From NCBI RefSeq assembly GCF_003334815.1, contig NZ_QOWO01000096.1: a DNA stretch of 1,702 nt; one strand, given 5' to 3'. This document shows, piece after piece, positions 1 through 1,702 of the stretch (the first letter of the stretch is position 1; every line of letters begins with the position of its first letter). Below the pieces are notes generated by a model that worked only from the letters and a program-made list of their open reading frames with translations, did not search any database and was not told the DNA's origin. This DNA comes from Escherichia coli (GTDB taxonomy: Bacteria; Pseudomonadota; Gammaproteobacteria; Enterobacterales; Enterobacteriaceae). Made by a program: the position numbers and the translations under genes.

Positions 1-2
1 AC

Positions 3-15
3 TGCTCTTTAACAA
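3..15 (+). promoter_or_regulatory. boxA antitermination element of the rrn leader (Nus factor / S10 binding site on the nascent transcript)
   Basis: Seen in sequence: tgctctttaacaa at 3-15 is the canonical rrn boxA (TGCTCTTTAACAA). Established knowledge: boxA nucleates the NusB/NusE antitermination complex in rRNA operons. Its position about 130-145 nt upstream of the 16S 5' end fits E. coli rrn leaders. Confidence 0.85.
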
Positions 16-20
16 TTTAT

Positions 21-45
21 CAGACAATCTGTGTGGGCACTCGAA
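21..45 (+). promoter_or_regulatory. Probable boxC (tgtgtggg, 30-37) and 5' strand of the long-range RNase III processing stem that brackets 16S
   Basis: Seen in sequence: GT-rich motif tgtgtggg at 30-37. Established knowledge: in E. coli, RNase III cuts the 16S precursor about 115 nt upstream of the mature 5' end, which maps to about position 32 here, inside a stem formed with spacer sequence 3' of 16S. From memory, the rrnB spacer contains …cacacagattgtctg…, complementary to 21-35 (cagacaatctgtgtg). That partner lies beyond position 1702, so the pairing cannot be confirmed in this window. Confidence 0.5.
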
Positions 46-146
46 GATACGGATTCTTAACGTCGCAAGACGAAAAATGAATACCAAGTCTCAAGAGTGA
101 ACACGTAATTCATTACGAAGTTTAATTCTTTGAGCATCAAACTTTT

Positions 147-1688
<1,542 letters not shown>

Positions 1689-1702
1689 CCTTAAAGAAGC
1701 GT
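1689..1702 (+). other. Start of the 16S-23S internal transcribed spacer, truncated by the window end
   Basis: Seen in sequence: ccttaaagaagcgt directly follows the 16S 3' terminus and is how I recall E. coli rrn spacers beginning. The spacer tRNA (Glu, or Ile+Ala) lies beyond the window, so the specific operon copy cannot be assigned. Confidence 0.8.

Follow-up and report, generated by a model that had tools for sequence, protein, structure and literature searches.

The DNA analyzed in this study is a stretch of 1,702 nucleotides from Escherichia coli (the window in the following), which consists of 146 nt in front of a 16S rRNA gene, the gene itself and 14 nt of spacer. The question raised by this locus is whether the short region in front of the gene is the transcribed leader of a working ribosomal RNA operon, and which of the sequence elements present there serve antitermination and which serve processing of the transcript. 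From two motifs in this region, a preliminary description had concluded that the 16S copy belongs to a functional, normally processed rrn operon and is neither orphan nor degraded.

A base-by-base comparison with all seven rrn operons of E. coli K-12 MG1655 (NC_000913.3) revealed 0 mismatches over the 1702 positions to rrnE and 1-11 nt differences to the other six operons. The 146-nt leader is identical, from the window start on, in rrnC, rrnD, rrnE and rrnG, and one base differs in rrnA, rrnB and rrnH, where this single difference sits far downstream of boxC. In a megablast search against complete E. coli genomes, all 5,426 contained a match to the window, at a median of 7 places each, and many strains carry the entire window at 100% identity. 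The gene itself is described as follows:

147 to 1688, plus strand: 16S rRNA gene rrsE; full-length match to Rfam RF00177 (1577.5 bits), annotated in RefSeq, 0 mismatches to K-12 rrsE.

Positions 1-1533 of the Rfam SSU model cover 147-1688, and the mature 16S rRNA starts at position 147. Since the promoters, boxB and the spacer strand are not visible within the window alone, one could suspect that the motifs stem from an orphan, truncated or decaying 16S copy outside any expressed operon. However, the window is identical to rrnE, which possesses both promoters, boxB, a complementary spacer, tRNA-Glu, 23S and 5S, and the 16S gene matches the Rfam model from end to end. In MG1655, the order P1-P2-boxB-boxA-boxC-rrsE-gltV-rrlE-rrfE is found between purH and yjaA, a complete rrn operon with P1 and P2 followed by 16S, tRNA-Glu, 23S and 5S in this order. 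An orphan or decaying copy is ruled out by this genomic context, and we consider its probability to be negligible. The earlier reading of the copy as neither orphan nor degraded therefore stands. That the operon is functional and normally processed is supported by the fact that the window is identical to rrnE, which lies within a complete operon; intact motifs alone, from which this had been deduced, are insufficient as proof. It is almost certain that positions 1-146 of the window are transcribed as the leader of the rrnE operon in E. coli.

The window corresponds to positions 6001-7702 of our extended K-12 rrnE sequence (L001), of which 480 nt upstream of the window were examined. Promoter P1 (TTGCGG, 16 nt, TATAAT; L001 5827-5854), followed by the discriminator GCGCCTCC, can be read directly in the sequence, and P2 (TTGACT, 16 nt, TAATAT; L001 5937-5964) was detected by a generic promoter scan. 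The same scan missed P1 because of its weak -35 hexamer, in which TTGCGG shares only three of six bases with the consensus, and P1 was recognized when it was aligned with its six counterparts. In the alignment of the seven K-12 operons, the block CTCCCTATAATGCGCC of P1 and the block TTGACTCTG of P2 are invariant. The 27 nt in front of the P1 -35 hexamer have an A+T content of 70% and contain two T-tracts. A boxB hairpin, GCGAC-AGUGCGCUAAAGCGC-GUCGC (-14.7 kcal/mol), ends 2 nt before the window start in rrnE. All seven operons possess such a hairpin directly 5' of boxA (-11 to -15 kcal/mol), and pairing is kept in both the GCCGC/GCGGC stem of rrnA, rrnB, rrnC and rrnG and the GCGAC/GUCGC stem of rrnE. 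The -35 and -10 elements of both promoters and the boxB hairpin are therefore located where the preliminary description had expected them, upstream of the window, and the order boxB-boxA-boxC after P2 is the published one (PMC10250234). Within positions 1-200 of the window, no promoter-like or terminator-like site was detected on either strand.

The same region is touched by an Rfam entry of a different kind. All 254 positions of the family Ysr197 (RF02849, "sRNA 197" of Yersinia) align to L001 5794-6025 (E = 1.9e-29), with a score of 117 bits that is below the gathering threshold of 167. The match begins upstream of P1 and ends 10 nt past boxA, 6 nt 5' of the RNase III site, so that only its last 25 positions lie inside the window (1-25). 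Apart from this sub-threshold match, no Rfam family covers the leader. Ysr197 aligns with the promoter-leader region of rrnE and yet is filed as an sRNA gene and not as an rrn leader; it is probably a model of a fragment with rrn promoter and leader and not of an independent sRNA gene.

The first element of the leader within the window is boxA:

3 to 15, plus strand: rrn leader boxA TGCTCTTTAACAA, exact and unique match, with the 9-nt core UGCUCUUUA at 3-11.

The window starts 2 nt 5' of this element. Even with two mismatches permitted, TGCTCTTTAACAA at 3-15 is the sole match in the window, at a chance expectation of 0.04, and it agrees exactly with the boxA consensus UGCUCUUUA(ACAA) on the transcribed strand, the core being taken as UGCUCUUUA in the literature (PMC2724277). 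With its position 38 nt past the P2 -10 hexamer (L001 5959-5964 versus 6003) and 144 nt ahead of 16S, the element is located as expected for a leader boxA. It is invariant in all seven K-12 operons as well as in the rrn leaders of Pantoea, Enterobacter, Photorhabdus, Vibrio, Shewanella, Moritella and Haemophilus. On the nascent RNA, boxA is bound by NusB/NusE(S10), which nucleates the rrn antitermination complex (PMC10250234, PMC6614801, PMC2724277), and the residue U-141 of the published U-141G mutation corresponds to position 6 of the window.

Such sequences were also encountered elsewhere. The exact boxA 14-mer TGCTCTTTAACAAT occurs outside rrn operons in Escherichia albertii (L095, 3366-3379) and, within similar surroundings, in Enterobacter sp. 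(L091). The surroundings of this non-rrn site are kept between both genera with a coding-like substitution pattern and correspond to the yoaE/pdeD locus of E. coli (89% identity). Beyond the window, the 16S-23S spacer contains a second boxA-like element, TGCTCTTTAAAAA, ahead of 23S and after the long hairpin ATATCTCAAAACTCATCTTCGGGTGATGTTTGAGATAT (L001 7886-7936). Together with its hairpin it is the antitermination signal ahead of 23S that is expected from the literature.

The second motif of the leader lies further downstream and overlaps the site of RNase III processing:

28 to 37, plus strand: boxC UCUGUGUGGG, exact match (with TGTGTGGG at 30-37), in the middle of the leader strand of the leader-trailer helix (hLT) and overlapping the RNase III site.

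31 to 32, plus strand: inferred RNase III cleavage of the 5' strand, G31/U32 (147 - 115 = 32), U32 being the 5' end of the 17S pre-rRNA (-115).

boxC was defined as UCUGUGUGGG by Warner et al. 2023 (PMC10250234). As a bare 8-mer, TGTGTGGG is weak, since 1.66 matches with at most one mismatch are expected per window and three were found. Its significance results from its context, namely the spacing to boxA, the position relative to 16S (-117 to -110) and a perfect complement in the spacer. Exactly 18 nt separate the boxA core UGCUCUUUA (3-11) from UGUGUGGG (30-37), and a spacing of 18-19 nt is observed in 98% of Enterobacteriaceae (PMC10250234). The 17S precursor released by RNase III carries 115 extra nt at its 5' end and 33 at its 3' end, according to a review (PMC8708148). 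Both motifs are consequently present as noted in the preliminary description, boxA as an exact match at 3-15 and TGTGTGGG exactly at 30-37, and its estimate of RNase III cleavage at about position 32 coincides with -115 relative to the 16S start at 147.

One could object that a sequence rich in A/T or G/T produced both motifs by chance, and the number of TGTGTGGG-like sites in the window would indeed fit this view. For the 13-mer boxA, however, the low chance expectation applies even at two mismatches, both motifs are kept at nearly fixed spacing in distant Gammaproteobacteria, and a near-perfect boxC complement is present at the expected position of the spacer. Conservation and complementarity rule out chance matches, and we attribute hardly any probability to them.

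The complement in the spacer is part of a long helix between the leader and the region behind the 16S gene. We folded positions 1-70 of the window together with +1 to +70 of the rrnE spacer (CCTTAAAGAAGCGTTCTTTGCAGTGCTCACACAGATTGTCTGATAG...), which yielded the following strands:

16 to 58, plus strand: leader (5') strand of the pre-16S leader-trailer helix (hLT), from the cofold with the rrnE spacer; partner +47 to +6.

1694 to 1702, plus strand: first part of the trailer (3') strand of hLT, from the cofold pair list; 16S numbering 1548-1556; partner 49-58 of the window.

The duplex has a predicted energy of -63.5 kcal/mol, compared to -24.0 ± 4.0 kcal/mol (best -40.1) for 300 shuffled spacers. 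Predicted pairs connect 16-47 with +47 to +15 (one bulged base), 49-51 with +14 to +12 and 54-58 with +10 to +6. A long complementarity thus exists between leader and 16S-23S spacer; the first nine bases of the trailer strand (+6 to +14) are still inside the window and the remaining ones (+15 to +47) follow just past its end. The earlier proposal of a processing stem formed with spacer sequence is borne out by this near-perfect complement, whose pairing energy lies far below that of the shuffled spacers. For the strand 21-45 proposed at that time, a complement exists at +42 to +17 (3-28 nt beyond the window end), but the strand as a whole is longer and comprises 16-58.

The published RNase III ends map to position 32 of the window and to spacer +33. 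In the predicted helix, position 32 pairs with +31 and position 30 with +33, so that the published ends leave exactly a 2-nt 3' overhang, which serves here as a consistency check only. A 2-nt 3' overhang is typical of RNase III. By deletion mapping, the critical parts of the helix were assigned to -113 to -89 in the leader and 1548-1570 in the trailer (PMC10250234); these segments correspond to 34-58 and to 1694 to +28 and agree with our cofold. The innermost cofold pairs should be treated cautiously, since a published covariation analysis gives no support for the pairs of -99 to -96 with 1554-1557 (PMC10250234), that is 48-51 with 1700-1703 of the window. Active 30S subunits require the helix even if RNase III is absent (PMC10250234).

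The type of spacer might also influence how far the helix extends. In rrnA, rrnD and rrnH, which possess ile/ala-type spacers, GAGCAGT at spacer +51 to +57 is complementary to ACTGCTC at positions 1-7 of the window, the 5' half of boxA. With these spacers the predicted helix extends into boxA (-67 versus -63.5 kcal/mol), whereas for glu-type spacers, including that of rrnE, only scattered pairs are predicted opposite positions 1-7.

Related leaders were collected by a scan for the boxA 14-mer TGCTCTTTAACAAT in the genomes of 100,044 species (one genome per species), which resulted in 120 loci. Many of these are chance matches in unrelated genes (Bacteroidota, Clostridia, one archaeon), and the true rrn matches are mostly located at contig ends. 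Leader, 16S and trailer occur together at five loci only, and Pantoea was added by joining its leader from L112 to its trailer from L117. Since so few loci combine all three parts, the covariation test is small. In Pantoea, Enterobacter, Rosenbergiella, Superficieibacter, Photorhabdus, several Vibrio, Shewanella and Haemophilus, (A/C)UCUGUGUGGGCAC is found 27-29 nt past the boxA start, and the boxC counterpart of Moritella is UGUGUGAGCAC.

Duplexes of leader and trailer could be compared for E. coli, Pantoea stewartii, Vibrio hannami, V. breoganii and Moritella, each with a predicted energy of -55 to -67 kcal/mol. In an alignment of nine distinct sequences from these five species, 84.6% of the cells are paired in the E. 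coli helix, compared to 34-48% after a shift of the 3' strand by 1-3 columns, a comparison in which the tested structure was derived from the E. coli sequence, itself a member of the alignment, and favours the unslid register. In the same alignment, 11 of 40 helix pairs change on both sides, and the observed covariation score was reached by none of 500 shuffles. The helices of E. coli, Pantoea, Vibrio and Moritella therefore show compensatory changes, in agreement with an analysis of 1441 enterobacterial sequences (PMC10250234). Given the small sample and a structure taken from one sequence, we regard the covariation as a corroboration of the helix and not as independent proof.

The double changes flank boxC (GACA/UGUC in E. 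coli, AUCA/UGAU in Vibrio, AGCA/UGCU in Moritella). The boxC core itself is almost invariant across the sampled species, with a G-C/G-U exchange and one A-C mismatch as the only variation, and the same limited variation was reported for the 1441 enterobacterial sequences (PMC10250234). The trailer partner CACACAGATTG is conserved as strongly as boxC. One divergent leader, from a MAG of an unclassified bacterium (L056, 1495-1560 and 3132-3222), was too different to be aligned and was left out. It is an rrn leader with an exact boxA but without the boxC sequence. Its leader-trailer complementarity (AAAAAAGGTGGCAGA with TCTGCTACCTTTTTT) follows directly after boxA and takes in boxA as well (TTTAACAA with TTGTTAAA).

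From these elements and the published work, the following course of events can be proposed. Transcription would start at the tandem promoters P1 and P2 upstream of the window, and the nascent RNA would present the boxB hairpin first and then boxA (3-15). Binding of NusB/NusE(S10) to boxA, together with NusA, NusG, SuhB and S4, would turn RNA polymerase into the faster and Rho-resistant rrn antitermination complex. boxC (28-37), about 18 nt past boxA, would emerge in the central part of 16-58, a stretch of 43 nt. After transcription of the spacer, roughly 1.7 kb later, this stretch would pair with +6 to +47 after 16S and form the leader-trailer helix, and RNase III would cut it with a 2-nt stagger, between positions 31 and 32 of the window and after +33, thereby releasing the 17S pre-rRNA. 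Our part of the basis for this scheme consists of identity, motifs, promoters, the boxB hairpin, complementarity, covariation and cleavage geometry. Factor binding, actual cleavage and the need of the helix for 30S assembly come from published work on E. coli sequences that are identical to positions 1-58 of the window. For such identical sequences, NusB/NusE binding, assembly of the rrnTAC and Rho resistance are known (PMC10250234, PMC6614801, bioRxiv 10.64898/2026.03.17.712431). According to a proposed model, NusB/E keep boxA attached at the RNA exit channel, so that boxC is ready to pair with the emerging trailer (PMC10250234).

A different role of boxC would be that of a protein-binding antitermination signal like boxA, in which TGTGTGGG mainly serves the binding of NusA and/or SuhB and the pairing with the spacer is secondary. 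The near invariance of the core across Enterobacterales, Vibrio, Shewanella, Haemophilus and Photorhabdus, next to helix positions that covary on both sides of it, suggests a sequence constraint beyond pairing. Moreover, SuhB binds the rrnG nut RNA far better if the boxA-boxC linker and boxC are present, and NusA of Mycobacterium tuberculosis binds a boxC-like element (PMC6614801). However, boxB and boxC of rrn operons were reported not to be required for antitermination (PMC2724277), and boxA was reported to be necessary and sufficient (PMC10250234). If 4-6 nt of boxC or of its trailer partner are mutated, 30S activity drops by a factor of 15 to 100, and it is regained with compensatory changes (PMC10250234). 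In addition, the equal conservation of the trailer partner fits a constraint on the duplex, for instance by recognition through RNase III. A main function of boxC as a protein-binding signal is for these reasons rather unlikely.

The structure of the helix matters far more than the sequence of boxC, as the published mutagenesis demonstrates (PMC10250234). The preliminary description had grouped boxA and the probable boxC or RNase III stem strand together as antitermination and processing signals. Since boxC is reported to be dispensable for antitermination and structure outweighs sequence, positions 30-37 are better described as a helix strand and RNase III site (PMC2724277, PMC10250234). Apart from pairing, the role of the boxC sequence is described as unclear (PMC10250234).

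The elements of rrnE closely resemble those of well studied systems. The rrn nut-like site of rrnG and rrnB, which was used for the cryo-EM of the rrnTAC and for biochemistry, agrees with that of rrnE in boxA, boxC and the 18-nt spacing. The only difference concerns boxB, outside the window, with GCGAC...GUCGC in rrnE in contrast to GCCGC...GCGGC in rrnA, rrnB, rrnC and rrnG. With the hLT of Warner, Bundschuh and Fredrick 2023, rrnE shares the strands, the register, the critical segment and the RNase III ends at -115 and +33. The leader strand is without any difference, while the trailer of rrnE deviates from that of rrnB at +15 (T instead of A) and +21 (C instead of T), two positions located within the inner part of the helix or next to it.

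Like the rrn leader, nutL and nutR of phage lambda possess a boxA to which NusB/NusE bind, together with a boxB hairpin and a G/U-rich boxC, and result in a termination-resistant RNA polymerase with Nus factors. However, boxB precedes boxA in rrn (boxB-boxA-boxC) and follows it in lambda nut (boxA-boxB-boxC), the boxA consensus is UGCUCUUUA in rrn and CGCUCUUA in lambda, and the rrn complex contains SuhB and S4 instead of the N protein (PMC2724277, PMC6614801).

Downstream of the helix strand, positions 46-170 are predicted to fold into three further elements, with z = -3.15 for the whole fold, which matches the published model (PMC10250234):

61 to 72, plus strand: leader hairpin hA, CGUC-GCAA-GACG with a GCAA tetraloop (-86 to -75), from the predicted fold.

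88 to 135, plus strand: leader helix hB, a long imperfect hairpin at about 89-134 in the fold, with the coordinates -59 to -12 taken from PMC10250234.

136 to 163, plus strand: helix h0 of 11 bp, 136-146 (-11 to -1) with 153-163 (16S nt 7-17), from the predicted fold and PMC10250234.

Melting of h0 is required for the mature 5' end of 16S (PMC10250234). hA was named and shown to be dispensable in the same study, where its deletion lowers 30S activity by only about 30% (PMC10250234), and it is absent from several enterobacterial clades. The sole repeat family within the window connects hA with the 16S gene, a direct repeat of 58-75 (hA, TAACGTCGCAAGACGAAA) and 326-343 (TAACGTCGCAAGACCAAA) with 17 of 18 positions identical and an exact core of 14 nt. 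The second copy corresponds to 16S nt 180-197 in the region of helix 9. A literature search on this repeat sequence revealed nothing relevant. One could speculate that hA serves transiently as a mimic or placeholder for a ribosomal protein or assembly factor that binds h9 in early 30S assembly. Independently of this, closure of the helix in operons with ile/ala-type spacers might help to displace NusB/E. We judge these ideas to be very improbable.

The elements of this leader are said to have been under study since 1978, when Young and Steitz reportedly described the RNase III processing stem of pre-16S rRNA. boxA, boxC and the RNase III stem of the leader are textbook biology, and our findings on them contain nothing new. 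Their value is that of an annotation: they assign this 16S copy to the normal, complete and processed rrnE operon of E. coli K-12 or of a strain identical to it.
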